A stretch of 64,000 nt of DNA from an uncultured bacterium (GCA_964552465.1 CAZKGR010000019.1:1619-65618), one strand, 5' to 3'; positions 4,982 to 64,000 are shown, numbered from the stretch's first letter. Numbers and translations: made by a program. Notes: generated from the letters alone by a model not told the origin.

Positions 4982-6370
4982 ATGGAGTCTTTCCACCTGG
5001 GGCTGGTGGGAGCAAAACATTCGTGCCATCCGCAACTGGTAGCTCAGCTCGAGGACGCCGGCTGTCGTGTCGACTGCTTGCCGGAATCAAAAAAGAAGGC
5101 GCTGGCCAAGCTCAATGAACTGCAACCTGACGTCGCGCTCTACATATACAACAAAGACACTTTCCGCGAAGCCGCAACCATCCTGAACGATGATCAACAG
5201 CACAGCCCCGTACCTTGGGTGCTGATTGTTGAAGATGAAACAGCGGTCAACAAGCTTCCTACCCAGTCTTTACACACGCACGGTATCCTCTTCTATCCAT
5301 TCCAGCCGCAGCAGATATCTGCGATGATTGAGCTCGCCATTCACCTGCACCGTAAAGAACGGTTAAAAGATGTAATATTATCCCATTACGTGGAAAGCCT
5401 GCGCAATGTGAATGAGGCGGTCATCCTGTCCGATCCCGGGGGGCAGGTACTGTTCGTGAACGAAAAAGCGATGCTGTTGACCGGATATGAGGATGCGAAC
5501 AAACGCCAGGTGGATCAAATTTTCCAAATTGAAGGCAACAAGAACTCCGGATCGAAACACCCCGTCTTACACACAATTCAAGAGTCGGATAACGGACACA
5601 GCTCATACCGCACTAGCCTTGCAAAACGAAACAAGGAAGCGTTACCGATTCAGTACCAGGTGAAACGAATCGAGAAAGAGAATGAAGTTCTTGGCGCATG
5701 CGTGCTGTTCCACGAAATCAAGGCACGTGCGACTGACCAATTAAACATCAGTCTGAATGAAACATCCAGCGACGAAGCCGCCAAGGAAGTTGTGGAAAAG
5801 GTCAAGCTGGCCCGTCCGGACGAAAACCGGGAAATGCGGATTCAGGTACGAACTTTTGGCGAATTTTCGTTGATGGTCGAGGGCAACCGCATCGAAACGA
5901 ACAAGTGGCGCTCGAAGAAAGCGCTCGATGTCTTCTCCTACCTGCTGCTTCATTACAGCCAGCCGGTGCACAAGGAAGTGCTGATCGATTTCCTGTGGCC
6001 GAATTTGGACACGCACACCGGCAATCGCCGCTTGCTGAACGCCGTCTCCGAGCTGCGCAAGTACCTCGAACCGGACGCGAAACGTTACGCCCGCAACGCC
6101 TTTGTCCGCCACGAATCAGGCGTCTACCGTCTCGATTTCGGCGAGAACGTGTACATTGACACGTTGGTCTTCCGTGAACTGGTCCGCAATGGCGACTACC
6201 AGTGGGCGACCAACCAGCAACGTATGGCGCGCACCTTTTACCTCGAAGCGTTGCAGCACAAGGACGGTCAGTTCCTCCCGCGCTATCTGTACGAACGTGA
6301 ATTCGAAGAAGCGCGTGAACAGTACGAGATTACCGAAAGTCGGCTCCGCGAACGCTTGGAACAGACCTGA
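4982..6370 (+). CDS. Transcriptional regulator, paralog of 2046..3413 (pseudo-receiver + PAS + SARP-type winged helix + BTAD-like)
   Basis: Same architecture and near-identical C-terminal winged-helix segment (RTFGEFSLMVEGNRIETNKWRSKKALDVFSYLLLHYSQPVHKEVLIDFLWP...LRKYLEP...GVYRL). I moved the start from 4943 to the ATG at 4982 (MESFHLGLVG aligns with MDRLNLAVTG of the paralog). A GGAGG SD sits 8 nt upstream. Confidence 0.8.
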   Translation: MESFHLGLVGAKHSCHPQLVAQLEDAGCRVDCLPESKKKALAKLNELQPDVALYIYNKDTFREAATILNDDQQHSPVPWVLIVEDETAVNKLPTQSLHTHGILFYPFQPQQISAMIELAIHLHRKERLKDVILSHYVESLRNVNEAVILSDPGGQVLFVNEKAMLLTGYEDANKRQVDQIFQIEGNKNSGSKHPVLHTIQESDNGHSSYRTSLAKRNKEALPIQYQVKRIEKENEVLGACVLFHEIKARATDQLNISLNETSSDEAAKEVVEKVKLARPDENREMRIQVRTFGEFSLMVEGNRIETNKWRSKKALDVFSYLLLHYSQPVHKEVLIDFLWPNLDTHTGNRRLLNAVSELRKYLEPDAKRYARNAFVRHESGVYRLDFGENVYIDTLVFRELVRNGDYQWATNQQRMARTFYLEALQHKDGQFLPRYLYEREFEEAREQYEITESRLRERLEQT

Positions 6371-6502: not shown

Positions 6503-6533
6503 CCGCGATAGCCGTCTTTGACGGCTATCGCGG
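6503..6533. promoter_or_regulatory. Perfect 13-bp inverted repeat (ccgcgatagccgt-ctttga-cggctatcgcgg) about 150 bp upstream of rmlA
   Basis: Seen directly in the sequence. No U-tract follows, so it may be an operator or an RNA hairpin. Confidence 0.4.
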
Positions 6534-6684
6534 GCACCATGCACTAGAGGCGCCGAACGTATCTCACACCCCTCACCCTAAGAGTTGCCAAGCCACCCGG
6601 ACAAAAGAGAGATCCTTCGCTACGCTCAGGATGACGCATAGAATCCCCTATATTCCACAATCGATCATCAACCCGGACATGCCC

Positions 6685-7569
6685 ATGAAAGGCATCATCC
6701 TCGCTGGCGGCAGCGGATCACGTCTGTTCCCCGCGACACGCAGCATCGTCAAGCAACTCCTGCCCATCTACGACAAGCCGATGATTTACTACCCGTTATC
6801 GGTGCTGATGCTGGCGAATATCCGCGAGGTGTTGATCATCTCGACACCGGAAGACACTGATCGCTTCGAAGCTCTATTCGGGGATGGGTCGCAGTTCGGG
6901 ATGCGCTTCGAATACGTAGTCCAGCCCGCGCCGGAAGGCTTGGCGCAAGCGTTCCTGTTAGGTGAGGATTTCCTCAACGGCGACGACGCGGTGCTGGTCC
7001 TCGGCGACAACATTTTCTATGGGCACGGGCTGGTAGAAACTCTCGTCCGAGCCTGTAGACGGGTTGAACAGGACCGCCGTTCAGTCGTTTTCGGTTATGC
7101 CGTGCAAGATCCGCAACGGTATGGCGTGGTCGAGTTCGATGTGACCGGGCGCGTCCTGTCTATCGAGGAGAAACCGTCCGCGCCGAAGAGCAATTATGCC
7201 GTCGTCGGACTGTATTTCTACACCAATGACGTTGTCGAGATCGCGAAGAACGTGAAACCATCCGAGCGGGGGGAGCTGGAGATCACTACAGTCAACCAAA
7301 CGTATCTCGACATGGACAAGCTGGATGTCGAGCTGTTGGGACGCGGGTACGCGTGGCTGGATACTGGCACACACGAGAGTCTGCTGGAAGCGTCGTTGTT
7401 TGTTCAGACCATCGAAAAACGGCAGGGGATGAAAATTTCGTGTATCGAAGAAATCGCGTACCGAAAGGGGTGGATTGACATTGACCGACTGAAGGCGCTT
7501 GCCGAACCGATGGCAAAGAACGAGTACGGGCAGTATCTGCTTCGTCTCGTGGACGGAAAAACTGTGTAG
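6685..7569 (+). CDS. rfbA: Glucose-1-phosphate thymidylyltransferase (RmlA/RfbA)
   Basis: [39 protein letters not shown]...[10 protein letters not shown] is the canonical RmlA N-terminus. I trimmed the start from the 6463 ORF to the ATG at 6685 (about 295 aa, the typical length). Confidence 0.9.
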
Positions 7570-7637: not shown

Positions 7638-7835
7638 TTACGCCTGGTCGACCTGATCCTTACAGGTGCTCAATCCGAAAGGCAGATACAATGGGCAGCG
7701 GCTAGTTGCCGCCGTTGCCAATGGAATAATCCCAACCGCACCCCACCAACTTTGGTAGTAAATCCCCACACCAATAATCACAACACCAAGAATCAAGCGG
7801 ATAATCCGATCAGCACCGCCCATATTCACCTTCAT
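7638..7835 (-). CDS. DUF2892 (YgaP-like) small inner-membrane protein
   Basis: Two TM segments and the conserved C-P-L-Y motif (SRCPLYLPFGLSTC) at the C-terminus. Confidence 0.7.
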   Translation of the reverse strand: MKVNMGGADRIIRLILGVVIIGVGIYYQSWWGAVGIIPLATAATSRCPLYLPFGLSTCKDQVDQA

Positions 7836-8071: not shown

Positions 8072-9178
8072 ATGACCCCGTTCTGGAAAAAGATTCGGCC
8101 CCGCAGCCGCTTGTTGCTGTTCGTGTTTCTCTCGGCGTTCATCGTGACGCAGGTGAGCTGGTGGGCGATCTACCAGACGCGAACTGCCGACCGCATAGCA
8201 TCGTTGCAGGAAGAGGTGTGGGAACGTGAGATCGGAGTCGCGGAACGTCTGATCGCGCAGCATGAATCAGTGATGTCGGACAGCTTGTTTGGAATGATGA
8301 ACGTGCTATTCGACGACTTGCGATTCGACGACGAATCAGCGCGTGTGGTTGTCAGCCACGAAGCGCGCGAACGGCTGGCATCTGAAACGACCGATGTCGC
8401 TCGCATGTTCGCGATGGAAAGCGCCACCTTCCTGATCATCATCCTCGCAGGAATGATTTACATGTACGTCACACTCCGCCGTGAAGTTCAGGTAGAAAGG
8501 CAATACGCAAATTTCCTTTCGGCAGTTACCCACGAATTGCGCAGTCCGGTGGCAGCACTTCGATTGTTGCAGGAAACGCTACATGGCGATCTCGCACCGG
8601 ACCAAAGATCGCAAGTACTAAGCAACATGGAGCGCAGTCTCGATCGGCTGCAAAACCTGATTGACCGCTTGCTGAAAACGCGTGAATTTACTGGCGATCG
8701 CCGCGCAACGAACGATCTGGAGCGTGCTGATCTGGGTGTGCTTTTAAAATCGGTAATACGCGACATCAACACTCATCACCCAATGGCAGGCGGACGGTTG
8801 ACGGTAGTTGCCGAAGATTCGGTGTTTGCTCGCGTTGACATTGAGCACTGGCGCATCATGGTCAGCAACCTGATTGATAATGCGCTGAAATACTCGAAGG
8901 CTGGCCGACCGATTACTATTTCGATGCAAAACGTCGGTAACAAAGCCACACTTGTTGTGAAGGATGACGGGGTTGGGTTTTCGATGGCGGAACGTCAACG
9001 TATCTTCAAACGATTCTATCGCATCGGCGATGAAAACACGCGGACGACTGACGGCAGCGGGCTTGGCTTGTACCTGGTGCGTGAGATAGCGCGGTCATTC
9101 CGTGGTAATGCGTGGGCATTCAGTGAAGGGCCGGGAAAAGGCGCGACATTCACTGTTCAGATCCCGCGGGCGAAATGA
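8072..9178 (+). CDS. Sensor histidine kinase (membrane-anchored, HisKA + HATPase_c)
   Basis: N-terminal TM segment. H-box LSAVTHELRSPVAAL. N-box LIDNALKYS. G boxes DDGVGF and GSGLGLYLV. Confidence 0.85.
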   Translation: MTPFWKKIRPRSRLLLFVFLSAFIVTQVSWWAIYQTRTADRIASLQEEVWEREIGVAERLIAQHESVMSDSLFGMMNVLFDDLRFDDESARVVVSHEARERLASETTDVARMFAMESATFLIIILAGMIYMYVTLRREVQVERQYANFLSAVTHELRSPVAALRLLQETLHGDLAPDQRSQVLSNMERSLDRLQNLIDRLLKTREFTGDRRATNDLERADLGVLLKSVIRDINTHHPMAGGRLTVVAEDSVFARVDIEHWRIMVSNLIDNALKYSKAGRPITISMQNVGNKATLVVKDDGVGFSMAERQRIFKRFYRIGDENTRTTDGSGLGLYLVREIARSFRGNAWAFSEGPGKGATFTVQIPRAK

Positions 9179-9229
9179 GACCTGAGATTCGAGAGACTAG
9201 AGACTAGAGACAAAAGACAAGAGACATTC

Positions 9230-9922
9230 ATGTCCCACCGAATACTGATAGTCGAAGACGACGAAGCGATTGCACTCGGACTGCAGATAAACTTGCAGCA
9301 CGACGGTTACAGCACTGAACTCGCTGTGGACGGCGAGGCCGCGTTGGTAAAAATCAGCGGGTGGAAGCCCGACCTGGTGCTGCTGGACGTTATGCTACCA
9401 AAACTAAGCGGATTCGACGTCTGCGAGCGAGTGCGGGACAGCGGTAATCGTGTTCCGATCCTGTTTCTCACAGCGAGAGATTTGCTCGACGACCGTCTTC
9501 AAGGGCTCGAGTTGGGTGGTGACGACTACATCACCAAACCGTTCTCGATGGATGAGCTGCGTGTTCGGATCAAGGCGATGCTGCGGCGACAAACGTGGTA
9601 CGAGGTCGTTCCGGATGTAGGAAGCAGCATCAACTTCGGCAGTAACACGGTAGACCTGTCTGCGTATCGCGCGACAACGCGCGAAGGTAAGGTTATGCTT
9701 ACCCAAAAAGAGACCATGGTACTCAAGTTACTAGTCGAGAACGAAGGCAAGGTGATTGATCGAGGCACGATTTTGAACAAAGTGTGGGGTGAGGAGATCT
9801 ACCCCAGCGGACGGACGGTTGACAACATCATCCTGAATCTTCGGCGACACTTTGAGGACGATCCGAAGAATCCACAACACATTTTCACCCACTACGGAGC
9901 CGGGTACTCGTTCCAGAGGTGA
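9230..9922 (+). CDS. OmpR/PhoB-family response regulator
   Basis: Receiver ILIVEDDE...LVLLDVMLP...YITKPF plus a C-terminal winged helix (LTQKETMVLKLLVENEGKVIDRGTILNKVWG). It lies 52 bp after the kinase gene. Confidence 0.9.
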   Translation: MSHRILIVEDDEAIALGLQINLQHDGYSTELAVDGEAALVKISGWKPDLVLLDVMLPKLSGFDVCERVRDSGNRVPILFLTARDLLDDRLQGLELGGDDYITKPFSMDELRVRIKAMLRRQTWYEVVPDVGSSINFGSNTVDLSAYRATTREGKVMLTQKETMVLKLLVENEGKVIDRGTILNKVWGEEIYPSGRTVDNIILNLRRHFEDDPKNPQHIFTHYGAGYSFQR

Positions 9923-10559: not shown

Positions 10560-12776
10560 ATGCGCCGCCGCCGATCAACACGTCCACGGCATCAAAGACG
10601 CGGTAAATCACGTCCGCACAGCACCAAGTCTACCGCGCGCGGACAGGGTTTGCAGCAAGCGGTAGAATCCTTCTTCGAACAACGTCCGAATATAAGCTTC
10701 CGAACCCGTGACCTCGTGCGCGAATTTGCCTCAACACCTTCGGACGAAAAAGAGGTTCGCCGGATCATCCATGCGCTACATGCGGAAGGGCGATTAAAGC
10801 GAATCAAAGGCGAACGTTTCCAGCAGACAACAGATGAATCACCGCGAGCGGTGGGACGGATCGAACTTACCGAAAACGGCGCCGGTTTTGTCCGCATGTC
10901 TGACGGGGACGGCGACATTTTTGTGCAACCATCACGACTAATGGGTGCGCGGCACGGTGATCGTGTCGAAATCGCAATCACCGGCCGAGGACGTTACGGC
11001 AACCGTTCCGGACGCGTGATCCGTGTCGTCGAGCGGGATGATACTCCGGTTATCGGTCGGTTCATCGCCCTGCCGGGACGTGGCGGATTGGTTTACCCGG
11101 ATAACCCGCGGATTCCCGGTCCGGTACAGATCCTGGAAGGAAATCGGCGCGGTGCGAAGCACGACGACCGTGTGCAGGTGAAAGTCGACCCCCACATTCG
11201 CACTCCGCAGCGCCGGGTTGTGAGAATATTCGGTCATGTGGACGATTCTGACGCCCGATTTGCCGCACTGCTCGCCGAAGCCGGTTTTCCGGAAAACTTC
11301 TCCGCTGACGCACTTGCTGAAGCTGATGACAGCACCCTTGAGATCAACGAGCGCGAACTCGCCTTGAGGACTGATTTTCGTAACGACACTGTGATCACAA
11401 TTGATCCAGCATCGGCGAAGGATTTCGACGATGCGCTGAGTTTGACACGCTTGAAGAACGGTGATTATGAACTAGGCGTACATATCGCCGATGTCAGTTG
11501 GTATGTGAATGAAGGCGGGCTGCTGGACAAGGAAGCGCGCGCACGTGGAACCAGTGTCTACAGCTCGCATGGTACATCGCCTATGCTTCCGCACAGCCTG
11601 TCGTCCGATAAATGCAGCTTGGTAGAGGGTGAAGATCGACGGACCATGTCCGTGGTCATGACCATCACGCCAGACGGCAAAGTGATCAACGCGAAACCGT
11701 GCCGCAGTGTGATCCGATCCGCGCGACGCCTGACATACGCACAGGCGCAGACGATGATCGACGAAGGCCGACAAAAGTGGGGCGACGAACTTCCTACCCT
11801 ACGTAAAAACAGCATCGGCCCGCTCGTTTACCACCTGATGATACTGGCTGATGCCATGCGTAAGCGGCGTTTTCGTGGCGGAGGCCTGAATCTCGAATTG
11901 CCAGAGTACGAGGTAATCCTTGACGGCGCAAATGCTGTCGATTCAATTCAGAAACGCGTTGTACTCGAATCAAACCACCTGGTTGAAGAGTGCATGCTCG
12001 CTGCGAATCGGACGGTGACTGAATTTGTCAACCGGTCGCGTGAGAGTAATCCCCGAACGTTCGTTTTTCGCATCCACGACCGTCCTGAGCCAGATCGGCT
12101 TGAGGATCTTGTTGTCCAACTGGACGCGCTGAACATTGACTGGCCATTCAGCCGGACCAACCTCGAGAACCTGCGTTCAAAACAGCTTAACGACTGGTTG
12201 GAATCGCTGAACGCAAATCCGCTCGCCGAAATTATTCGCTACCTGATCCTGCGCGCGATGGCGAAAGCCGCTTATGACACGGAAAACATCGGTCATTACG
12301 GCCTCGGCTTCGTAAACTACACACACTTCACTAGCCCGATCCGGCGCTACCCGGACCTTATGGTGCATCGCATTCTGAATGCGATCCTGGATCGCAAGAC
12401 AAAATATGGACCAGACATTCGTCAACATCTACAGCGAATTTGCGACCTTGCCAGCGAAAGGGAACGTGCCGCCCAGATTGTCGAACGTAAATCACTGAGC
12501 ATTCGGCAGGCAGAATACTTCGCGCGGCAAGTTGGGGTCGAATTCAGCGGTTTGATCGTCGGCGCTATACCACGCGGCGTATTCGTTGAAATTGCCAATA
12601 CCGGTGCCCAGGGAATGATTCTCGCCGAAGATTTGGGCAATGTCTACTTTGACCGCGAGCTGCTTGGCTTCGTTGAAATAACCGGCGACAAGCTGTTCCG
12701 GCCAGGAATGAAATTGCAGGTTCGTGTCCTTTCGGCTGATCCCGACGCCGGTCGTTTCGAGCTGGAACCCGCCTGA
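10560..12776 (+). CDS. rnr: Ribonuclease R (RNB-family 3'-5' exoribonuclease, VacB)
   Basis: RNB signature HFTSPIRRYPDLMVHRIL. N-terminal HTH/cold-shock-like region and C-terminal S1 domain (GLIVGAIPRGVFVEI). Confidence 0.9.
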   Translation: MRRRRSTRPRHQRRGKSRPHSTKSTARGQGLQQAVESFFEQRPNISFRTRDLVREFASTPSDEKEVRRIIHALHAEGRLKRIKGERFQQTTDESPRAVGRIELTENGAGFVRMSDGDGDIFVQPSRLMGARHGDRVEIAITGRGRYGNRSGRVIRVVERDDTPVIGRFIALPGRGGLVYPDNPRIPGPVQILEGNRRGAKHDDRVQVKVDPHIRTPQRRVVRIFGHVDDSDARFAALLAEAGFPENFSADALAEADDSTLEINERELALRTDFRNDTVITIDPASAKDFDDALSLTRLKNGDYELGVHIADVSWYVNEGGLLDKEARARGTSVYSSHGTSPMLPHSLSSDKCSLVEGEDRRTMSVVMTITPDGKVINAKPCRSVIRSARRLTYAQAQTMIDEGRQKWGDELPTLRKNSIGPLVYHLMILADAMRKRRFRGGGLNLELPEYEVILDGANAVDSIQKRVVLESNHLVEECMLAANRTVTEFVNRSRESNPRTFVFRIHDRPEPDRLEDLVVQLDALNIDWPFSRTNLENLRSKQLNDWLESLNANPLAEIIRYLILRAMAKAAYDTENIGHYGLGFVNYTHFTSPIRRYPDLMVHRILNAILDRKTKYGPDIRQHLQRICDLASERERAAQIVERKSLSIRQAEYFARQVGVEFSGLIVGAIPRGVFVEIANTGAQGMILAEDLGNVYFDRELLGFVEITGDKLFRPGMKLQVRVLSADPDAGRFELEPA

Positions 12777-12901
12777 GTCTCTGGAGCACTCTCGCTGCCA
12801 GACGAGTTTAATCCCCGAAAATCCAAAGCACAAGCCGTTTTTGACCTGACAATTACGTAATATCCGAATCATCAGAAATTTACGAATTTTCTAAAAAAAA
12901 C

Positions 12902-12931
12902 TTGATTTACCCCCCCCTCGCCGTAATTATT
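12902..12931 (+). promoter_or_regulatory. Possible sigma70-like promoter (TTGATT-17-TAATTA) upstream of the small-peptide ORF
   Basis: Sequence pattern only. AT-rich context. Confidence 0.2.
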
Positions 12932-13063
12932 CTATGAATAGTCAGACCTTAAAAGGTACGCTCTCGCACGAGATCCAAAAAATACCGACGCGTGACTGAG
13001 AATTCTCAGCAAAAGAGTTGGATCTCGTTATTTAGTAGTAAGCATGAAACAAGAGGAGTCTGA

Positions 13064-13222
13064 CATGGAAGCCGCATTCAATCTGCTACTCGTCATCCTT
13101 GGGATGGGATTTGTTGGCGGCATAGCTTTCACAATCGCCCGTATACGTAGTGGGCGCACGGTTATGCCAGATTTTCGCGTTCCTTTGAGCGTGAACCCGA
13201 ACCAAACCTCAGAACAGTTCTG
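13064..13222 (+). CDS. Small hydrophobic peptide, 52 aa (paralog 1 of 3)
   Basis: MEAAFNLLLVILGMGFVGGIAFTIARIRSGR... An AAGAGGAG SD sits 8 nt upstream. One TM helix plus a basic tail. Paralogous to 13516..13611 and 62606..62743. Confidence 0.45.
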
Positions 13223-13515
13223 AGAAATCCAGTAAGCGAATATTATCGCCTGGGATTCGATGTAACCCTGGAGGCATGAGAGACATATTCGATGATGTAA
13301 TTCATCCAATCGTTTCTGGATCTCTTAATATCTTCCTCCACTCCGGCTCCCGCATCATCCATTCCCTCAAGTGATATTTTATCTCACACACGCGCTGAAC
13401 TATTGAGCAGGATGTTTGCAGGTTCTCGTCCGTGTCGTATGTTGATACAACTGCCGACAATGACGTGCGTAAGTTATTGAAAATTACTTGTGTGGAGTAA
13501 TCGGCGGAGGGGAAG

Positions 13516-13611
13516 ATGGAACAGGTTTGGATCAACCTCGCTTACATCGCAGGCGGGGTAGGATTTGGTCTGGCAATGGTCGCAGTAGTTCAAAAACTGC
13601 GTCGTTCCTGA
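13516..13611 (+). CDS. Small hydrophobic peptide, 31 aa (paralog 2 of 3)
   Basis: MEQVWINLAYIAGGVGFGLAMVAVVQKLRRS. A GGAGGGGAAG SD lies immediately upstream. A hairpin with a U-tract follows (13665..13697). Confidence 0.4.
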   Translation: MEQVWINLAYIAGGVGFGLAMVAVVQKLRRS

Positions 13612-13664
13612 ATATAGAAACAAAAACGCCTTGGATATGATCAGGTGTGGCGGTGCTTTGTTTT

Positions 13665-13700
13665 GCCCGTGTTCGGCAGTTACCGGACGCGGGTTTTCTC
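13665..13700 (+). terminator. Probable terminator after small peptide 2
   Basis: gcccgtgttcggcagttaccggacgcggg (imperfect stem) followed by TTTTCTCTC. Confidence 0.35.
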
Positions 13701-13932
13701 TCTATATATGCCCCAGACATTTATGCTGGGATGAATCACCACCTGCGTGGCCGAGGGCATGTACATTGTGCCTGTGATAGACCGTGAAACGGCTATAGCG
13801 GATTATCCACAAGCCCAAATGTGTCGGTCATCCCTGCTGGCAGAGCCCGCAGGGGCACCGTACATGCTTCAACCAACAGGAAACCCGGGATTGAAACCCC
13901 GGGCTATACATATCAGAGAATTTGCACGGTTC

Positions 13933-15123
13933 TTAGAACTCAGCGCCGGTATACACCAACCGGATGAACCGCGGGCGGTATATGTCCGCGTAAGTGAAAT
14001 GATCCCAGAAATCCAGGCAATTGACATTGTAACTAATCAGCAATTCACCCGGTTCAGACAAACTCGGATGAGCCTTCGCGTTGTAGCACCAGGCGTCTGC
14101 GTCGGGGAAATCGTCCGGGACGGTGCTGGTATAAATGGGGTGCGTGATGCTCCACGGACCGCGAGGACTGAGCCCAATACGGAAGCCGATGGTACGGGTG
14201 ATCGTGTCTACGGTGAAAATCATGATGTAGCGGTTGTTCGGTAACGGTGTTACACTCATTTCCGATGACACCCGATTTGTCAAGCGCGCCGCCTGGGTGA
14301 AATCCGCCACCCACTGCTGTCCGTCAAAGAAACGCCACTGGTCTAAATCTGTGAACTGTTCTTCGGGCACACGCGCCACCAGCGAGTACTTGTCATACGG
14401 CACTTCTTCCAACCCGTAGATGTAAATGAAACCGTCAGGATTCGGTGCCCCGGCACGCTCAGTGTTCGCCATCAGCCCCGCTGTGAAACTGATTTCACCA
14501 CGATCTCCTTCCGCGGGTGCGTGAAACGGTAGTTCGTATTGCTGGTAATTGTTGAACGGTGGGGATGAGCCCGCCGGAATCCGAATGATAGCAGTGCCTG
14601 TGCGCACGAACCACAATTCCTGATCGCTGCGCATGCGCAACGCCAGGATATAGACAGCGTCCGGCAGCGAGATTCCGTCTCCCAGCCAATACCACTCGCC
14701 GGGCTGGCTGTTCGGTGTGTCGGGCACGAACATGGACGCCGCATTACCACCCTGCTGCCGGTAAATGAAATGGATGCTGTCTGGATCGACAATACCCGGT
14801 GGCAGGTAAGCCATGGTGTTGTTGATCATTGTAGTCCCGCCCAAGCGATTGCCCTGATCATCCACCTCGCCGATGAAAGTGTCGCTGAACACGAACAGAG
14901 TCTGGTTGGTGTTATGGGCACCGAAATGATCGTTGCCATCAACCGGGATGGAATAGATGCCGTCCGCGCCGGACCAGCCGGAATGCTGGTCAAACATCGC
15001 GTCCCATTCCGGTGCTTCCTCCACATACCAGTTCTGGGCGCTGGATACGCCGAAACCCATCAGAAGGAAGACAACGAGCAATAAAGCAGCAATTCGTGGC
15101 ATCTTGAAATCCTCGACAAACAT
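13933..15123 (-). CDS. Secreted protein, uncharacterised family (paralog 1 of 4; no T9SS CTD)
   Basis: Signal peptide then the conserved AQNWYVEEAPEW...SGW.GADGI.SIP...FVFSDTFIGEVD...PDTPNS.PG.WYW..DGI.L...YNAKAHP.LSEPGELL.SYNVN..DFW.HF..ADIYRPRF. The profile is beta-rich; the fold or glycoside-hydrolase affinity was not verified. Confidence 0.8.
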   Translation of the reverse strand: MFVEDFKMPRIAALLLVVFLLMGFGVSSAQNWYVEEAPEWDAMFDQHSGWSGADGIYSIPVDGNDHFGAHNTNQTLFVFSDTFIGEVDDQGNRLGGTTMINNTMAYLPPGIVDPDSIHFIYRQQGGNAASMFVPDTPNSQPGEWYWLGDGISLPDAVYILALRMRSDQELWFVRTGTAIIRIPAGSSPPFNNYQQYELPFHAPAEGDRGEISFTAGLMANTERAGAPNPDGFIYIYGLEEVPYDKYSLVARVPEEQFTDLDQWRFFDGQQWVADFTQAARLTNRVSSEMSVTPLPNNRYIMIFTVDTITRTIGFRIGLSPRGPWSITHPIYTSTVPDDFPDADAWCYNAKAHPSLSEPGELLISYNVNCLDFWDHFTYADIYRPRFIRLVYTGAEF

Positions 15124-15140
15124 GTCAGTTTGCTAACCAG

Positions 15141-16607
15141 CTATTTCACAACGGTAAACTTCTGAGTTGGAATGTTGTCCGCACCGTCAATTTGCAGGAA
15201 ATATGTCCCGGACGAGAACAGGTTTGCATTGAGCGACACGGTTTGTAGACCGGCGGATAGTTCCCCCCGGTGCAGGGTTTCAACCAGCCGTCCCATGATA
15301 TCATACACCGCAATGTTTACATCGGCCGTCATTGGCAGATCAAAGTTTAGCACCGCGGACGCATTAAATGGATTCGGCGCGATCACAGGGGCAGGAGTTA
15401 ACGTGATTTGCGATCCGATTTCGGCTCCTGGATTGTTCAGGATGCCTTGATCAAGAATCAGCTTCACGAACCGCGGGTGGTATATATCCGCATTGCTGAA
15501 ATGCGCCCAAAAATCGCTACAGTTGATGTTGTAACTGACCAGCAGCTCGCCCGGTTCGGACAGATGCGGATGCGCCTTCGCGTTGTAAGTGGTGATCGGG
15601 AGATCTGGCCAGATATCCGGTTCAGGCACCGTGTAGAAGACGTGATAGTCGCCCCACGGCCCCCACGGGGTCGGTGCAAGACGGAAAGCCAGCTCACGCC
15701 CAATCGTTCCGACCTGAAATACAAGGATATAGCGCCCATCCGGCAGTGGCGTGACACTCATTTCATGCGACACTCGATTAGTAACCCTGACAGCATCATT
15801 CATGTCATCCGACCACTGCCCCTGTCCGGCATAGAAACGCCACGCGCTGGGAATGGGGAAATGTTCTTCCGGCACGCGTGCGACTAGCATGTGCTTGTCC
15901 AGCCACGCATCTTCAGCACCGTAGATATAAATGTAGCCATCGGGGAAGTATGCGCCGGCACGTTCTGTGTTCGGCATAATCCCAATCGAGAACCTGCGTG
16001 TCCCGCGGTCGCCATTTTCAGGCAGATGGAACGGCAGATCGTATTGCTGATAATCGTTAAATGGTGGGCGATCGTGGTATGGCATACGAACCATCGCCGT
16101 TCCGTCGAGTGCAAATCCTCCTCCCATCGGCGTCCGCATGCGCCAGACGATAAAATAGACAGCGTCCTCGAGCGCGATTCCGTCACTAGGCCAATACCAC
16201 GTTCCCGGCGGTGCATTGGGAGTGTCGGGGACAAACATCGACTGTGGATTGTTGAACGTGCCCTTGTAGTAGAACTCAGACGTTATCGGATGAGGTCCAT
16301 CAGGCGGCCACCACGCTAAAGTGTTGTTGATCATGTGCGTATTCAGGCGGTTGCCGTTATTGTCGACTTCACCGATGAAGGTGTCGCTGAAAATGACTAG
16401 AGTATTATTCGTGTGATGTGCGCCGAATTGTTCGTTACCGTCCAATGGGACGGTGAAGATGCCGTCAGCGCCAGTCCAGCCATAATCACGGGTGACGACG
16501 CTATTCCAGCCCGGTGCGAGTTCCGTGTGCCAGTTCTGGGCACACACCAATCCGGAGTTGGCCAGGACCACGGTCAGGACGAATGCCGCACAAGTAGTTC
16601 TTTGCAT
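15141..16607 (-). CDS. Secreted protein, same family (paralog 2 of 4) with T9SS C-terminal sorting domain
   Basis: Same conserved core plus a C-terminal about 80 aa APNPFNASAVLNFDLP...GTYFLQIDGADNIPTQKFTVVK (Por/T9SS CTD). Confidence 0.8.
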   Translation of the reverse strand: MQRTTCAAFVLTVVLANSGLVCAQNWHTELAPGWNSVVTRDYGWTGADGIFTVPLDGNEQFGAHHTNNTLVIFSDTFIGEVDNNGNRLNTHMINNTLAWWPPDGPHPITSEFYYKGTFNNPQSMFVPDTPNAPPGTWYWPSDGIALEDAVYFIVWRMRTPMGGGFALDGTAMVRMPYHDRPPFNDYQQYDLPFHLPENGDRGTRRFSIGIMPNTERAGAYFPDGYIYIYGAEDAWLDKHMLVARVPEEHFPIPSAWRFYAGQGQWSDDMNDAVRVTNRVSHEMSVTPLPDGRYILVFQVGTIGRELAFRLAPTPWGPWGDYHVFYTVPEPDIWPDLPITTYNAKAHPHLSEPGELLVSYNINCSDFWAHFSNADIYHPRFVKLILDQGILNNPGAEIGSQITLTPAPVIAPNPFNASAVLNFDLPMTADVNIAVYDIMGRLVETLHRGELSAGLQTVSLNANLFSSGTYFLQIDGADNIPTQKFTVVK

Positions 16608-16703
16608 CTACATCTCCGCTCACTATCGACACAATGGAGAAACGAATTCACAGAATCGGCTTCGCGGTCACCATTGCTATATAGATAATTAACCTGCCTA
16701 TCG

Positions 16704-17876
16704 CTAAAACCGATTCCCCAAATAAATCAGTCGCACAAATCGTGGACGGTAGATTTCGGCGTGGTCGAAATGCGCCCAGAAATCATGAACGCTGACGTTA
16801 TAGCTGACCAGAAGCTCGCCCGGCTCGGACAAGTGTGGGTGTGCTTTGGCGTTGTAACACCACACTGGCATCCCGATATAGTCATCCGGTTCAGGGCAAT
16901 GATAGAATATGTGATACTCACCCCATGGTCCCCATGGAGTTGGACCTATTTTGAACGCGAGATCCCGCCCAATGGTGTCGAGTTGGTAGACCACGATGTA
17001 GCGTCCATCGGGCAGCGGCGTCACACTCATTTCTGGCGAGACGCGTCCCGCAGTGCTGACCGCGTTGCGGAAATCAGATATCCAACCATCCTGTCCGGCC
17101 CAGAATCGCCAGGCGTTGCCGTCTGTAAACTGTTCTTCGGGAACGCGGGCAACCAACAACCGTTTATTCATCGGAACTTCTTCAACCCCGTAGATATAGA
17201 TGTATCCATCCGGGAAAGGAGCGTTCGCACGTTCAGTATTGGGCATGATTCCGACACCGAAACTTATGCTACCACGAGTTTCATTGGCTGGTTCAAACAA
17301 ATCCAGTTCCCACTGCTGGTAGTGGTCAAACGGTGGTCGGGCGGTTGCTGGTAAACGGAGCATCGCGACTCCGTCACGGGCAAAACCAACCTGCTGGTCA
17401 GGTCGCATCCGCCAAGCGAGGAAATAAACCGAACTGTCAAGAGCGATTCCATCACTGGGCCAATACCAATGGTCAGGCTCAGAGTTGGGGGTATCAGGGA
17501 TAAATGTCGTAGCTGGAGAGCCGTCATCTTCAGCGTAATAGAACTGCGCGGTTTCAGGGTCAGGCACCCCAGGCGGCATCCATGCAAGAGTGTTCTTAAC
17601 CATTTGCGTGCCGGGCAAACGGTTCCCAGCGCTATCAACTTCGCCGATGAATGTGTCGCTGAAGACGAACAGCGTGTTCACGTAATTATGCGACCCGATG
17701 GTTTCATCACCGTTCAGTGGGATAGAAAAAATTCCATCGGCCCCGGTCCATCCTGAAGTACGGTGAAACACAGCACTCCACTCAGGGACTTCTTCGACAT
17801 ACCAGTTTTGTGCGTGGGATATGCCGAAGCCCGTCAGAATGAAGACCACGATCAGCGATGTTGCAGTTCTGGACAC
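16704..17876 (-). CDS. Secreted protein, same family (paralog 3 of 4; no CTD)
   Basis: Signal peptide plus the conserved core. Ends ...IYRPRFVRLIYLGNRF. Confidence 0.8.
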   Translation of the reverse strand: MSRTATSLIVVFILTGFGISHAQNWYVEEVPEWSAVFHRTSGWTGADGIFSIPLNGDETIGSHNYVNTLFVFSDTFIGEVDSAGNRLPGTQMVKNTLAWMPPGVPDPETAQFYYAEDDGSPATTFIPDTPNSEPDHWYWPSDGIALDSSVYFLAWRMRPDQQVGFARDGVAMLRLPATARPPFDHYQQWELDLFEPANETRGSISFGVGIMPNTERANAPFPDGYIYIYGVEEVPMNKRLLVARVPEEQFTDGNAWRFWAGQDGWISDFRNAVSTAGRVSPEMSVTPLPDGRYIVVYQLDTIGRDLAFKIGPTPWGPWGEYHIFYHCPEPDDYIGMPVWCYNAKAHPHLSEPGELLVSYNVSVHDFWAHFDHAEIYRPRFVRLIYLGNRF

Positions 17877-59384: not shown

Positions 59385-60470
59385 ATGACAGATCGTCCAC
59401 TCAGCCGACCGTGGTTCCGTGCCAAGGGATTCGCTCTCTACGCACGGCTGGCGATCTCCCGCAAGGACGATGTCAGCGCTGACCCAATCCCACGCGATGT
59501 GAAACGCATACTCGTGCTCGCACCCGTGTTGCGCGGCGATTACCTGGTCGCGACGCCGCTGTTTGCCGCATTGAAGGAAGCACGTCCGAACGCAGAGATT
59601 GCGGTGTTGGTGAAAAGTCCTGGTCGTGAACTGGCGGCGCATGATCCGAATGTGGATCGGGTGCTGATATACGAGTCACTACCGAAGTGGTTCGCATCGA
59701 TGCAGGAAGTATACTGGTACCATCCGGATGTTGTAGTGCTGCCAAAGGGTCACCCGGCGTTCACCGAGAGTTTGTTGATGATGGTCAGCAGGGCGAGGTA
59801 CCGCGTGGGCTTGTCGCATCCGCATCACAACCCGCTCCTGACACATCCGATAGAGCACGATTGGGACAATGAACATCGGACGGTGGCATACGTTCGACTG
59901 TTGAAACCGTTCGGTGCAGATCCAGCATCGGCGAGTCGGCGGTTACATATCGGCAGCATCCCGGAAGCGGAGCGATGGGCCGGACGAATCTGGGCGTCGA
60001 ATGAGGGAAATCCGCTTTTTTCGGTTAACTTGTCGGCCAGTCGTGAATCCCGGATGTGGACTCTGGATGCGTGGCGAGATTTAATCACAGAGTTGATTGA
60101 ATACCGTCCGCATGCGCGGTTTATCGTGCTGAGCATGCCAATTGACAGGCCTATGTGTGATACGTTGGCCAGCGAATTTGAAGCAGTTACAACGGTACCT
60201 ACGCGGAGCCTGTTGGAAGCGGTTGCGTTGACCGCGCGAACAGACATGCTTATCACTGTTGACACTGGAATTGTTCAGGCCGCGGCGGCACGAGGAGTGC
60301 CGATGGTTGTGCTGTACAATGGCGACCACGAAGTCTATTTGCGCTTTGCGCCGCAATCAGTGCCGCATCGCGCGATTCTGGCCCCACGAAACGAACCGGT
60401 GGCAGTCATCAAGCCTACCGATGTTTCTCATGAAGTAGTCCATCTCCTCGCTGAACTGGAGAAGTTATAA
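59385..60470 (+). CDS. Glycosyltransferase family 9 (heptosyltransferase-like)
   Basis: ILVLAPVLRGDYLVATPLFAALKEARPNAEIAVLV...ITVDTGIVQAAAARGVPMVVLY fits the GT9 pattern. Confidence 0.7.
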   Translation: MTDRPLSRPWFRAKGFALYARLAISRKDDVSADPIPRDVKRILVLAPVLRGDYLVATPLFAALKEARPNAEIAVLVKSPGRELAAHDPNVDRVLIYESLPKWFASMQEVYWYHPDVVVLPKGHPAFTESLLMMVSRARYRVGLSHPHHNPLLTHPIEHDWDNEHRTVAYVRLLKPFGADPASASRRLHIGSIPEAERWAGRIWASNEGNPLFSVNLSASRESRMWTLDAWRDLITELIEYRPHARFIVLSMPIDRPMCDTLASEFEAVTTVPTRSLLEAVALTARTDMLITVDTGIVQAAAARGVPMVVLYNGDHEVYLRFAPQSVPHRAILAPRNEPVAVIKPTDVSHEVVHLLAELEKL

Positions 60471-62404
60471 TGATCGGATTGACACGTTTCCGGAAACGGT
60501 CCGAGTCAAAGAAGAAGCATAGACGTAAGCGTCGCAGTCGCTCGCGTGTCACGCAACAGCAGACACCTGCGCTTATCGTCGATATTCAACAACCGGAAGT
60601 GAAAGTAATCTGGTCGCTTCTCGGCCTGATCCTGACAACCGGTCAGACGATCCTCTGTTTTTCATATCCAAGGGGTCCGGAACCATGGTTCGGGATCGGG
60701 ATCGCAGCGCTACTTGTATTGATTGGAGTAGTTACCAACAGCCTTCCGACACCACGACCGCACCCGGCTTTTCTGCCCGGGATACTGATTGTCCTCGCAA
60801 TGCCAATATTGCGCATCATCACCGGGGCAGAATTCCTGAAAGCTTTCTCTGAACCCTTTATTTATGCGATAACACTCATCTGGATGTTTGCGTGGTTTGT
60901 TCGTGGACGTTGGGCAGTTGGTGTGTCAGCCCTGATGTTAATACTGTTAATTGAGTACTTCCTCTCCGTTCATCTACCCGGAGGTTCGTGGGATACAACC
61001 CCGCTGTTGAGCCATACTGAGGGAATTATTTCGCTGCTGTGGCAAGGTGGGCTGAAGTATCGTCTGCTGCTACTGCTGGTACTGGTTTGTTTGATTGCAT
61101 TAGTATCGCGAGCTAGACGGGAACGGGGACGTTGGGCAAAGCAACGTTTCCTGCGCTTCATGATGAACTCGTCTCTGTCCCTCGGAATCCTCGGGCTGGC
61201 CGCAGCTACGGTCTTTCCGAGATATGTACCGGTTGATGCGATATCACTGCTCGGGTTTAGCTTTGGCGTGTCCATCGCAGCACGACAGCGGCTGATTTCG
61301 GAAGATCCAACCCGTCACCCCGCAAGCCAGCTAACGCCAATCCGGGGCTATATCGAAGAAATTGTCATCGGATTGGAAACGATACTCCGCTCGATTACCG
61401 GCGGCGGTTCCCTGAGCACTGGAACGCCGGATGACCGTCGTAGTCGGCTGATCGATTCGAACAGCGAAATAATCTATAACCCATACGGCAACAAAAATCC
61501 AAACTGGGTTCCGGTTGTGTTGCACGCGCACACGAACCGCTGGGAAGGTAAATTCAAGCCAGAAGTTGTGGTGGATCATTTCACACGGTTGGGCGCGAAA
61601 TCGGTCATCCTGACCGACCACAATCGTATCACCAAAACGAAGAATCCATATCAGAACATTGATGCGTACGAACAAGGCTGGGGTTCGCACAACAACCATG
61701 TTCTGGTGGTGGGCGCACACAAGCGAATTCCAGACTCACACATGTTCGGCGGAAGCGTTCGGGACCGGAGCAAGAACCTGAAACGGTTGCGCGGCGTGAG
61801 TGAGTTTACCGTATTAGCGCATCCACGGAACAAAGGGGCGTGGTCATCGGACGACGTGGTCCGCCACGATTATGACGCGCTGGAAATCTTCAACAAATCC
61901 ATCGACAGCTATCGCCGTTGGGATGAAGCACTAAGCTCTGGATTGCTAGTCTGGGCAACCGCTGGCGACGACTGTCATGATATCCGGAGTCGGCACCAGA
62001 CAGGAAAGCGATTCCTGCTGGTTGATCTTGGTGATATGGCTCCTCATCCAGGCGAACCCGCAGACAGCCAGCTCGTTCTCGAAGCGCTGAAGGCCGGACG
62101 GTTCATCTCAGTGCGCCACATGAGCCGAAATGTCACCCGTGAAATACCGCATCCAAACCTGCCGGTTGTGGAAGAATTCAGTTTTGACGGAAGTTCTCTG
62201 CGGATCAAGTTCAACAAACGGATTGATACGATCAAAGTTTACGGTCCCTTCCGGACCAAAAAAGCGACCTACACACGCGAAGAAGAGGTGGTAGTCGGAC
62301 CACGTGAGAACGAAGGGTTTGTTCGGATCGTTGCCGAACACGGACCGTTCCTGATCGTGTTCAATCCGATTGCACGCGTCAGCGGACTGGAATACGGAGT
62401 GTGA
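60470..62404 (+). CDS. Polytopic membrane protein with C-terminal PHP-like metal-dependent phosphoesterase domain
   Basis: Six or more TM helices in the N-terminal 300 aa. The C-terminal domain has VVLHAHTNRWEGK...VILTDHN...VLAHP...TAGDDCHD (PHP-type His/Asp ligands). The ATG overlaps the GT9 stop (TAATG). Confidence 0.6.
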   Translation: MIGLTRFRKRSESKKKHRRKRRSRSRVTQQQTPALIVDIQQPEVKVIWSLLGLILTTGQTILCFSYPRGPEPWFGIGIAALLVLIGVVTNSLPTPRPHPAFLPGILIVLAMPILRIITGAEFLKAFSEPFIYAITLIWMFAWFVRGRWAVGVSALMLILLIEYFLSVHLPGGSWDTTPLLSHTEGIISLLWQGGLKYRLLLLLVLVCLIALVSRARRERGRWAKQRFLRFMMNSSLSLGILGLAAATVFPRYVPVDAISLLGFSFGVSIAARQRLISEDPTRHPASQLTPIRGYIEEIVIGLETILRSITGGGSLSTGTPDDRRSRLIDSNSEIIYNPYGNKNPNWVPVVLHAHTNRWEGKFKPEVVVDHFTRLGAKSVILTDHNRITKTKNPYQNIDAYEQGWGSHNNHVLVVGAHKRIPDSHMFGGSVRDRSKNLKRLRGVSEFTVLAHPRNKGAWSSDDVVRHDYDALEIFNKSIDSYRRWDEALSSGLLVWATAGDDCHDIRSRHQTGKRFLLVDLGDMAPHPGEPADSQLVLEALKAGRFISVRHMSRNVTREIPHPNLPVVEEFSFDGSSLRIKFNKRIDTIKVYGPFRTKKATYTREEEVVVGPRENEGFVRIVAEHGPFLIVFNPIARVSGLEYGV

Positions 62405-62485
62405 TTAAAAGCAGGTATGAGCTGTGAGGCGTGAGGTCTGAGGAAAAGACAGGAACAGACAGTAAGAGAAAGTCAAAACAATTCT

Positions 62486-62515
62486 GCCACGGACTTCAGT
62501 CCGTGGCATTTCTCT
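62486..62515 (+). terminator. Rho-independent terminator
   Basis: gccacggactTCAgtccgtggc followed by ATTTCTCT. Confidence 0.65.
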
Positions 62516-62545
62516 GTGCCGAAATTGGAAATCAGGAAAAGAGAA

Positions 62546-62578
62546 AACGCCTGGTGGCTCAGACCAGGCGTTTTCCGG
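62546..62578. terminator. Bidirectional terminator hairpin
   Basis: aacgcctggtGGCTCAGaccaggcgtt has U-tracts on both strands. It lies just downstream of the minus-strand small peptide gene. Confidence 0.5.
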
Positions 62579-62605
62579 GGAAATTGGAGGCAATCGTAAA
62601 ACGAT

Positions 62606-62743
62606 TCAGCCAACAAATGTTTCGTTAGGGATTACTACATCTGAGCGATTTCCACCGCTCTGCCTTGCGAAGAACACACCAATAAAAATTGCCGCACCAA
62701 CCAAGCCAATCGCCAAGACTGCATACGCTAACAAGTTTTCCAT
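62606..62743 (-). CDS. Small hydrophobic peptide, 45 aa (paralog 3 of 3)
   Basis: MENLLAYAVLAIGLVGAAIFIGVFFARQSGGNRSDVVIPNETFVG. An AGGAGG SD sits 5 nt upstream of the ATG. The upstream part of the 77-aa track ORF is probably not translated. Confidence 0.45.
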   Translation of the reverse strand: MENLLAYAVLAIGLVGAAIFIGVFFARQSGGNRSDVVIPNETFVG

Positions 62744-63226
62744 CTCATCCTCCTCGCCCCGCGGGGCTGGTTCTGTTTTTTCTACCCTCGCGGGATATGG
62801 TACGCTGGGCGCGCCACCCAATGCTGTGTTCCTCGTCACGGCGTGACGTGTATCACACTGTTATTACTGCAGGTTAGCTAAAAGGTCAGCCAAAACCCGC
62901 ACCGTTGTTTGTTCGCACAAAAACAAACTGGGAGAGCCCGTAACCCCATTTCTGACCGGGATCACAACGATCTCGCACACGCTTGTCAAACTTGATGCGG
63001 ACAATAAAACCGAGAAAGATAAATTTTTCTCCGAAAATACGAGGAAGGCCCGAGGCGTAACTCTCTAAAAAACTAAATACTCAGATTTCTAGCTGAAATT
63101 CCGAGATAATGGTTAGGGAATGACGGCGTTTTTACCAGAGATTGTGGGTGTGACGCACCTCACTGGCAAAAACGGATCGGGCCAGGAAAGGTTAGGTTGC
63201 AGGTTGTTGCGAGTTACGAAAGAGGA

Positions 63227-64000
63227 TTACGGCCCCATCTTATCGAAGTCGAAGGACTGCTCTGCAACGGGCTGATTCTGGTAGAACAGCTTGCCGATAA
63301 ATCTGTAATCGCCCGGCGGGGCATTGGCAGGCACATCCAGCGTCAGATCCTGGAAGGCCATGCTCTGAAATGGTGCCAAGGTGAAGTTGTAGTTGATGAC
63401 TGGGCCAAGCATCCAAATCTCAGGGCCGATAATCCACACCCGATACCACACACCAGCGAAGTTGTATCCCAGTTCATTGAATAGTTGTGCGTCGTAGTAT
63501 ACAGTTCCTCCGGTTGCAGGAAGAACCGTGTTGTGTCCCGTCAGGACGTAAGTAACCGGTTGCCAGTTCGTGGTATCCGGGACTGATACGATGGATTCGC
63601 CTTCAGGTTCATAATAAGCAGTGACACGGTAGATATACTCGCCGTATGCTTGTAGCTGGTCGATGAAATACGTCGTGTCGGAGGACCCGATGAACTCGCC
63701 GTCTCGATAGATCCGATACTCGACGAACTCGTCCAGTTCGTCAATTGTGGCCCGGCTTGATGTAGTTTCAAGCCGGGTTTCCTGGTTTTGACGGGTTGTG
63801 AAATCCGGGTCTGAAGACCCGGGCCACCCAGCAACGTCACGATACCGTGTGTTCCTCGTCTCGACGAACTGTTCCGATCCCACAAACGGGGGAGGATTGT
63901 CAGTAGGTTGCCCGGTTTCATCCAGCTGAACTTCAACTCGTTCGCCGTGCTGTGGTTCAACATCACGCGGCATCAGTAAAGCGTTGTTGCTACAATTAAT
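63227..64000 (-). CDS. Hypothetical protein, C-terminal part (ORF runs off the window end)
   Basis: Open frame with no stop between 63973 and 64000. Beta-rich, no motif. Confidence 0.5.
   Translation of the reverse strand: MNCSNNALLMPRDVEPQHGERVEVQLDETGQPTDNPPPFVGSEQFVETRNTRYRDVAGWPGSSDPDFTTRQNQETRLETTSSRATIDELDEFVEYRIYRDGEFIGSSDTTYFIDQLQAYGEYIYRVTAYYEPEGESIVSVPDTTNWQPVTYVLTGHNTVLPATGGTVYYDAQLFNELGYNFAGVWYRVWIIGPEIWMLGPVINYNFTLAPFQSMAFQDLTLDVPANAPPGDYRFIGKLFYQNQPVAEQSFDFDKMGP

Follow-up and report, generated by a model that had tools for sequence, protein, structure and literature searches.

The small accessory and regulatory inner-membrane proteins of Enterobacteria, among them AcrZ, KdpF, CydX, MgrB, and MgtS, are 30–50 amino acids (aa) long, have a single transmembrane (TM) helix and their own Shine-Dalgarno (SD) sequence, were missed by annotation, and pack against a larger membrane protein. 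Genome annotation systematically overlooks small membrane proteins or gives them no name, most of all in uncultured lineages. Here we describe three genes for such small proteins, P1, P2, and P3, and the conserved region upstream of P3, in a 64,000-nucleotide (nt) stretch of DNA from an uncultured bacterium (GCA_964552465.1 CAZKGR010000019.1:1619-65618), hereafter called the window.

Among type I toxins, the membrane-associated ones of tisB/istR-1, zorO/orzO, aapA1/isoA1, and hok/sok have long structured 5′ untranslated regions (UTRs) (PMC8309996, PMC3919570, PMC6733600), and one criterion for a type I membrane toxin is that the peptide be hydrophobic, shorter than about 60 aa, and predicted to form a TM helix (PMC8309996). 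The products of P1, P2, and P3 likewise are hydrophobic, fall below about 60 aa, and have a predicted TM helix. To our knowledge, no type I toxin–antitoxin system has been characterised in the Fibrobacteres–Chlorobi–Bacteroidetes (FCB) group.

Three Small Membrane Protein Genes

Comparison of the window with related metagenome-assembled genome (MAG) loci, labelled L001 and so on, indicates that P1, P2, and P3 are protein-coding genes under purifying selection, because synonymous differences exceed non-synonymous ones and differences are concentrated at the third codon position. The genes and their translation signals are as follows.

13065..13223, plus strand: P1, gene for a 52-aa single-TM protein, MEAAFNLLLVILGMGFVGGIAFTIARIRSGR..., identified by its open reading frame (ORF) and its orthologs
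13053..13058, plus strand: SD sequence of P1, GAGGAG, 6 nt before the ATG; GAGG or GAGGAG is kept in L001–L003
13516..13611, plus strand: P2, gene for a 31-aa single-TM protein, MEQVWINLAYIAGGVGFGLAMVAVVQKLRRS; SD sequence GGAGGGG at 13506–13512
62606..62743, minus strand: P3, gene for a 45-aa single-TM protein, MENLLAYAVLAIGLVGAAIFIGVFFARQSGGNRSDVVIPNETFVG; SD sequence GAGGAGG at 62749–62755

Substitutions in P1 and P2 were counted between divergent genomes by the Nei–Gojobori method. The proportion of synonymous differences (pS) was 0.66–0.95 for P1, 0.39–0.87 for P2, and 0.54–0.80 for P3, against proportions of non-synonymous differences (pN) of 0.16–0.23, 0.17–0.31, and 0.12–0.21, respectively, and the differences at the three codon positions numbered 67/18/132 (P1), 79/67/159 (P2), and 88/48/217 (P3). 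Between the near-identical L001 and L002, synonymous and non-synonymous changes stand at 5:1 in P1 and 7:1 in P2. The initial annotation had described three ORFs of 52, 31, and 45 aa, each with a strong SD sequence, had judged them not to be chance ORFs, and had proposed conservation in relatives as a check. All three are present, their frames are kept at the amino-acid level with synonymous sites near saturation, and both the purifying selection in relatives and the rarity of the SD-plus-TM signature bear that judgement out. This signature was sought on both strands of the whole window with a filter for an ATG start, an SD sequence, a hydrophobic 17-mer, and a length of 20–90 aa, and because the filter returned only five ORFs (P1, P2, P3, a YgaP-like TM protein, and an internal start inside a long gene), the three are not chance frames. 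In the corresponding intergenic islands of relatives, only these plus-strand ORFs pass the filter. The best 17-residue Kyte–Doolittle means of the three proteins are 2.0–2.7.

The relatives of the P1–P2 locus were obtained by scanning species-representative genomes with RNase R, which gave five related MAG loci at 56–79% identity, one of them carrying the label Calditrichaeota. P1 has orthologs in L001, L002, and L003 (62–67% identity), each immediately 3′ of the RNase R gene, and P2 has orthologs in L001, L002, L003, and L005 (55–61%). In L001, the ATG that precedes P1 at 13044 is either not in frame or interrupted by a stop, and therefore the Met-Glu start is the conserved start of P1. Orthologs of P3 were reached through homologs of the neighbouring 644-aa protein and their contigs, followed by an alignment search with P3, and were found in L016, L017, L024/L025, L026, L027, and P0020 (48–82% identity). 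A longer form of P3 (77 aa from a GTG at 62839, as called in L016) was rejected, because L017 and other loci have breaks in the added part of the frame, so that the similarity there lies at the DNA level. A P3 homolog is also present in "bacterium BMS3Bbin04", which is classed as an unclassified FCB-group bacterium (PMC7495880).

None of the three proteins belongs to a family in Pfam or NCBIfam, where the best match has an E value of 0.11 and 12–13 bits against cut-offs of 27–28 bits. P1 has a single match, itself, among the 5.8 billion proteins searched; for P3, the same proteins include 7 close homologs, and a set of 1.84 billion representatives includes only 3 clusters. The exact sequences of P1, P2, and P3 are all called as genes in public collections. 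A likeness of the P2 C-terminus (GG, hydrophobic stretch, RRS) to the GlyGly-CTERM sorting signal was set aside, the NCBIfam search having given no hit to that model and the 31-aa protein being without a passenger domain. A public 90%-identity cluster (P0004–P0008) places the 45-aa P3 under an unrelated, AT-rich, 385-aa aminotransferase-like representative; the implied kinship is a clustering artefact.

With moderate confidence, we read P1, P2, and P3 as three separate, lineage-restricted families of small inner-membrane proteins that bind partners, with P3 controlled by its leader. What the comparison shows is coding status, conservation, synteny, the lack of a known family, and the constraint and fold signal of the P3 leader; from these we infer how the proteins sit in the membrane, that genes are transcribed together, that the SD sequence is occluded, and that the proteins bind partners. 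The common design comprises an acidic Met-Glu/Asp N-terminus, one glycine-rich (small-xxx-small) TM helix, and a basic membrane-adjacent stretch; from the acidic N-terminus and the basic stretch, the positive-inside rule predicts an N-out/C-in topology for all three proteins. Most likely, the helices act in the manner of small accessory or regulatory subunits, by packing on a larger membrane protein or on one another. The genes are inherited vertically within an uncultured marine FCB-group lineage. The families occur in that lineage only and mostly in syntenic positions, which favours inherited small membrane proteins over mobile toxin–antitoxin modules.

The Conserved Region Upstream of P3

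P3 would form a unit of its own, with a constrained leader of about 300 nt and a conserved terminator. Its elements are listed here.

62744..63042, minus strand: leader or control region of P3, about 300 nt, conserved and non-coding, from two multi-locus alignments
62835..62857, minus strand: tripartite element TGTGAT-ACAC-GTCAC-GCC-GTGAC, candidate alternative hairpins or CRP/FNR-like box
63149..63163, plus strand: another TGTGA-N6-TCAC box, some 100 nt upstream of the conserved block, present also in contigs identical to the window
62533..62576, minus strand: P3 terminator hairpin GCCTGGTCTGAGCCACCAGGC (62576–62542 in the terminator scan) and T run, with stem and loop both conserved

In six loci, the conserved block begins abruptly about 300 nt 5′ of the ATG (near 63042 in the window) and ends after the terminator. 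The 3′ half of the leader shows 0.14–0.31 differences per site, which is below the pS of the ORF, with no three-nucleotide periodicity, and the open frames of the leader are not conserved and differ between loci. A hidden ORF in this leader, or in the P1–P2 spacer, was rejected because frames are not conserved on either strand. We regard these roughly 300 nt, whose function is predicted from sequence, as the sole new element of the locus, and as a conserved structured leader they offer a concrete candidate for cis regulation by a new RNA.

The leader of the window folds with −109.9 kcal/mol (z −3.74). The consensus fold reaches −43.4 kcal/mol in the sense direction, compared with −31.1 in the antisense direction and −18.4 ± 3.9 in column shuffles (sense z −6.4), the shuffle being a simple one in which dinucleotides are not preserved. 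The structure derived from the window is kept in 72.7% of cells, compared with 41–45% when partners are slid, and compensatory change occurs in 18 leader pairs against 11.4 ± 2.4 in shuffles, although this pair-conservation test is biased in that the structure tested was derived from one of the sequences. Because the fold signal is strand-asymmetric, we lean toward a region that works as an RNA leader rather than as a DNA operator. Rfam 15 gives no match in the window at the gathering threshold, and at E values up to 10 there is only noise in the P3 leader, the P1–P2 island, and the orthologous loci.

In the predicted fold of the leader, a long-range helix pairs the 5′ UUUAUCUUU(CUC) stretch with GAGGAGGAUGAGAU, which covers the SD sequence and the AUG. 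The helix is found in the consensus fold and in 4 of the 6 minimum-energy folds (window, L027, L016, and L026). As the 5′ pyrimidine stretch UUUAUCUUUCUC of the leader can pair with the SD sequence and start codon, the structure of the mRNA probably keeps P3 from being translated until a signal releases it. The leader also holds GTGAT-N4-RTCAC-N3-GTGAC, which corresponds either to two mutually exclusive hairpins or to a CRP/FNR-like box; its arms are invariant in the six loci and its spacers vary. In L005, a perfect CRP-type palindrome, TGTGATCCACATCACA, lies at 6118..6141, immediately 3′ of the RNase R gene; it is followed by CTGTGAC and forms the same three-arm element. By nhmmer, the P1 and P2 leaders are unrelated to the P3 leader, and this short element in L005 is the only shared piece.

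It is possible, though in our view somewhat unlikely, that the 300 bp upstream of P3 are conserved mainly as DNA, that is, as a promoter and operator with CRP/FNR-type boxes. The true 5′ UTR would then be about 45 nt long, beginning after a TACCAT −10-like hexamer at 62802–62797, and P3 would be ordinarily regulated. Invariant half-sites with variable spacers in six loci suit an operator, as does the perfect TGTGATCCACATCACA in the L005 island; however, no Crp/Fnr-family regulator occurs among the window proteins scanned against Pfam. Both TGTGA-N6-TCAC matches of the window lie upstream of P3, where 0.85 matches are expected in the window as a whole, but 21 of 100 shuffles reach two, so that the count is not significant alone. 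Measured on the sequence, the box is centred about 61 bp upstream of the putative start that TACCAT would give, which suits an operator. The RNAalifold covariation term of the leader is unfavourable (+2.89), which also suits an operator, whereas the sense fold, clearly better than the antisense fold and the shuffles, and the excess of compensatory and G-U-preserving changes argue for an RNA.

Several points count against a partner-binding protein under leader control. In strength, the SD-pairing duplex does not exceed other windows of the leader or shuffled sequences (a fraction of 0.01–0.25 of the shuffles reach its energy or a lower one), and it shows no covariation, and conserved half-sites with variable spacers fit a DNA operator equally. 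The invariant TTGACA-17-TGTGAT upstream of P3 is without the key −10 adenine, and the P3 promoter is not placed by the scan; if transcription starts downstream of this TTGACA...TGTGAT region, the 5′ pyrimidine stretch would lie outside the RNA. As to partners, none is identifiable in the gene neighbourhood, and the two-component system adjacent to the RNase R block is not syntenic in relatives. Finally, small hydrophobic proteins with structured leaders also resemble type I toxins.

On the plus strand, antisense to the leader, a sigma70-like CGGACA-16-TAAAAT match at about 63000..63035 keeps its position in 4 of 6 orthologs. It is directed away from P3, into DNA that is not conserved, and may be a chance effect of an AT-rich motif.

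Genomic Setting of the Two Loci

P1 and P2 lie in the interval 12777..13932, which is bounded by the stop of the RNase R gene (rnr; 10560..12776, plus strand, 738 aa, Pfam domains RNB, CSD2, and OB_RNB) and by the end of a minus-strand DUF4185 gene (13933..15123). The interval contains no convincing long gene and has a GC content of 0.40–0.48, compared with 0.52–0.62 in the flanking genes, in agreement with its earlier description as a gene-poor, AT-rich island. That it is otherwise gene-free holds for the window but not for L001 and L002, in which P1 and P2 flank a third small ORF with a TM helix. The sole long ORF, at 13747..14244 (plus strand, 165 aa), is antisense to the DUF4185 gene, has no Pfam match, and is most likely a spurious shadow ORF. 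A search for tRNA and tmRNA genes found none. The features of the island other than the two genes are these.

12902..12929, plus strand: weak promoter-like TTGATT-16-TAATTA upstream of P1, predicted from sequence
13270..13371, plus strand: conserved spacer motifs GGAGGCATGAGAGAC (13270–13284), TCCTCCACTC (13334–13343), and ATCATCCATTCCCTCAAG (13354–13371)
13493..13515, plus strand: deletion junction, with the SD sequence TGGAGT of the lost middle ORF now just before the SD sequence of P2
13665..13704, plus strand: terminator-like hairpin (13665–13694) and T run after P2

Two regulatory signals of the initial annotation need correction. The spacer of its promoter-like element is 16 nt rather than 17, and the site scores below the threshold of the promoter scan; the equivalent AT-rich stretch in L001 and L002 has TTGATA-18-TATAAT. 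A terminator, claimed to follow each gene, does follow P2 and P3 but not P1, whose stop codon is spanned by a hairpin that has no T run and is not conserved. In L001 and L002, an unrelated hairpin with T7 occupies the position of the P2 terminator of the window. Because no terminator follows P1, P1, the middle ORF where present, and P2 are best read as one small-membrane-protein operon with turnover of its members. P1 and P2 would most likely be co-transcribed from the AT-rich promoter region to the terminator 3′ of P2, beside genes of stress and cold shock.

The gene order, a 184-aa gene, RNase R, P1, and P2, is syntenic in L001–L003 and partly so in L005. The putative operon thus lies just 3′ of RNase R, and in relatives it would include a third member and be followed by a cold-shock protein gene. 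The third member is an SD-led Met-Glu TM ORF between P1 and P2 at 13005..13106 in L001 (product MEAVASIGVILFVIVSVVKMCRTCARVANAQRR) and at 13214..13315 in L002. It is degenerate in L003 (about 8290–8375) and deleted in the window, where its SD sequence TGGAGT remains at 13493–13498. At the P1 position, L005 has a 47-aa ORF of similar design (6508..6651, MDSVLQLVTIVIGGWCVVGLALALLRARARNARW...) with no detectable homology to P1, and L004, with 56% RNase R identity, has neither P1 nor P2. The cold-shock protein gene directly follows the P2 ortholog in L001 (about 13560–13760), L002 (about 13770–13970), and L005 (about 7030–7200), and there is none at that place in the window or L003. The rnr-adjacent locus shows gain and loss of small membrane genes.

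The motifs of the P1–P2 spacer are kept in the window and L001–L003, and frames there are broken by indels on both strands. The CCUCCAC of the spacer (TCCTCCACTC) is complementary to the P2 SD region in L001, GUGGAGG, and the spacer may pair with the P2 SD sequence through it. The spacer has no significant consensus RNA fold (z −1 to −2), and the P1 leader has no significant structure.

Beyond the island, 13933..17876 on the minus strand holds three tandem DUF4185/DUF5005 paralogs of 396, 488, and 390 aa, of which the middle one (488 aa) bears the Por_Secre_tail sorting domain of the type IX secretion system (T9SS). Upstream of the rnr block, 8072..9922 (plus strand) encodes a histidine kinase and an OmpR-type response regulator. 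A link of the small peptides to this pair was ruled out, as the pair is not syntenic in relatives.

P3 lies downstream of one 835-aa T9SS-tail gene in L016, L017, and L024 and adjoins the 644-aa gene in the window, L016, L017, and L026. Because it is syntenic with one or both of these conserved neighbours, P3 is not a mobile cassette. In loci P0012, P0013, P0014, and P0015, P3 is absent or the sequence ends too early, and anchoring on the 644-aa protein in JGI metagenomes yielded only relatives of 25–27% identity that are without P3. The 644-aa protein (60470..62404, plus strand) matches no Pfam domain and is conserved at 34–80% identity in several uncultured lineages; its gene and a Glyco_transf_9 gene are translationally coupled. 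The window from 62301 to 64000 is 100% identical to contig L007. On the other side of P3, an apparent 248-aa ORF (63227..64000, minus strand) is the C-terminal part of a 489-aa gene, and it is because the window edge cuts this gene that the neighbours seem to differ at the window end.

Toxins, Paralogs, and Likeness to Known Systems

The initial annotation had proposed type I toxin-like or small membrane-regulatory peptides. The small membrane-protein genes stand, but the toxin claim is not supported; no antitoxin RNA is detectable from sequence. An antisense-promoter check at the sequence level found no positionally conserved antisense promoter-plus-terminator pair inside any unit. We nevertheless weighed the reading, which we consider unlikely, that at least one peptide, with P3 as the best candidate, is a type I toxin whose 5′ UTR hides the SD sequence and which is neutralised by an unseen antisense or divergent small RNA. 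In favour of it, P3 has a conserved terminator of its own and a leader that combines length, constraint, and structure and whose 5′ end is able to pair with the SD sequence and AUG; on the other hand, the SD-pairing helix is not statistically distinctive, and the P1 leader and the P1–P2 spacer are without significant structure. Turnover in the rnr island, with a middle ORF that is present, degenerate, or deleted and a different P1-like ORF in L005, would suit a toxin, but each family is single in the window, and the loci are syntenic and vertically inherited, RNase R being 65–79% identical across those genomes. As for the antitoxin, apart from the missing promoter-plus-terminator pair, the only conserved antisense sigma70-like match leads away from P3 into non-conserved DNA, and conservation stops sharply at the unit ends, which leaves no place for a conserved divergent small RNA gene. 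Synteny and vertical inheritance speak against a toxin–antitoxin module, as does the absence of any conserved signal for antisense transcription, and the predicted SD-occluding leader keeps the toxin reading alive chiefly for P3. If P3 is toxic, type I toxin-like systems would extend to the FCB superphylum; otherwise, these genes are ordinary genome content.

A related and, we think, equally doubtful proposal is that the P3 unit of about 510 nt is a self-contained regulatory RNA-plus-peptide module of a kind new to the FCB group, in which the leader gates translation of a membrane-active 45-aa peptide. Such a module would combine the long-range 5′-to-SD helix with a GUGAU/RUCAC/GUGAC alternative-hairpin switch, and its leader would sense temperature, a ligand, or an unseen small RNA. 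If true, this would amount to a riboswitch-like orphan leader or to the superphylum's first described type I toxin-like system, and the recurrence of the switch element in the rnr-downstream island of L005 would hint that the peptide genes are controlled in common.

It is improbable that P1, P2, and P3 are diverged paralogs of one small-protein family, as had been claimed; the similarity of P1 and P3 is marginal, P2 is unrelated, and paralogy is not demonstrable. The three share a common design of Met-Glu start, Gly-rich helix, and basic tail, and P1 and P3 share G.G..G...R..GG..RS....IP, with an hhalign P value of 5e-4 and probability of 30%, and p 0.05–0.07 in a permutation test in which helix and tail columns were shuffled consistently across each family. 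However, P2 and P3 are alike in composition only (hhalign probability 2%, permutation p 0.36), P1 and P2 give an hhalign probability of 0.8% and p 0.12, pairwise BLASTP among the three gives E values of 0.05–14, and the leaders are unrelated by nhmmer. That the three ORFs arose by chance in DNA that encodes no protein, as their very short length and lack of a family match might suggest, is extremely improbable, and we regard it as already refuted by the synonymous excess and third-position bias in all three, by the conserved start, stop, and SD sequence, by ORFs that align across relatives in which the DNA around P1 and P2 is barely alignable, and by the rarity of the SD-plus-TM signature in the window. 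P1, P2, and P3 are thus three well-supported small membrane genes with clear selection signatures from an FCB-group bacterium without a cultured representative.

Compared with tisB, zorO, aapA1, and hok, P1–P3 agree in hydrophobicity, a length of less than 60 aa, and one TM helix, and P3 agrees further in a long structured leader that is predicted to be able to hide the SD sequence and in being a self-contained unit with its own terminator. They differ in having no antitoxin RNA detectable from sequence, in their single syntenic copies, and in the absence of family-level similarity.

CcoS/FixS (TIGR00847), the small assembly protein of cbb3 oxidase, is similar to P1 in size and in the Arg/Ser/Gly stretch after the helix, and residues 1–22 of P1 weakly match its N-terminal TM helix (E 0.11, 12.2 bits). 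However, the score is far under the cut-off of 28.35 bits, the match covers the hydrophobic helix only, and there are no cco genes nearby; P1 as CcoS was rejected as helix-level noise.

Within the window, a fourth SD-led small membrane ORF, intergenic and 65 aa long (7638..7835, minus strand), encodes a YgaP-like TM domain (PF11127, E 4.7e-23). Like P1–P3, it is a small membrane ORF that passes the SD-plus-TM filter; unlike them, it has two helices and belongs to a known family, and it is unrelated to them. It shows that small membrane genes are normal content of this genome.

With the AcrZ, KdpF, CydX, MgrB, and MgtS class, P1–P3 have no sequence similarity and, unlike its members, no adjacent partner gene. 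In addition, two or three genes are clustered in one operon here, and P3 carries a constrained leader of 300 nt, whereas the genes of that class are without such a leader. What P1–P3 have in common with this class is a Gly-rich small-xxx-small helix and conservation within a single lineage.

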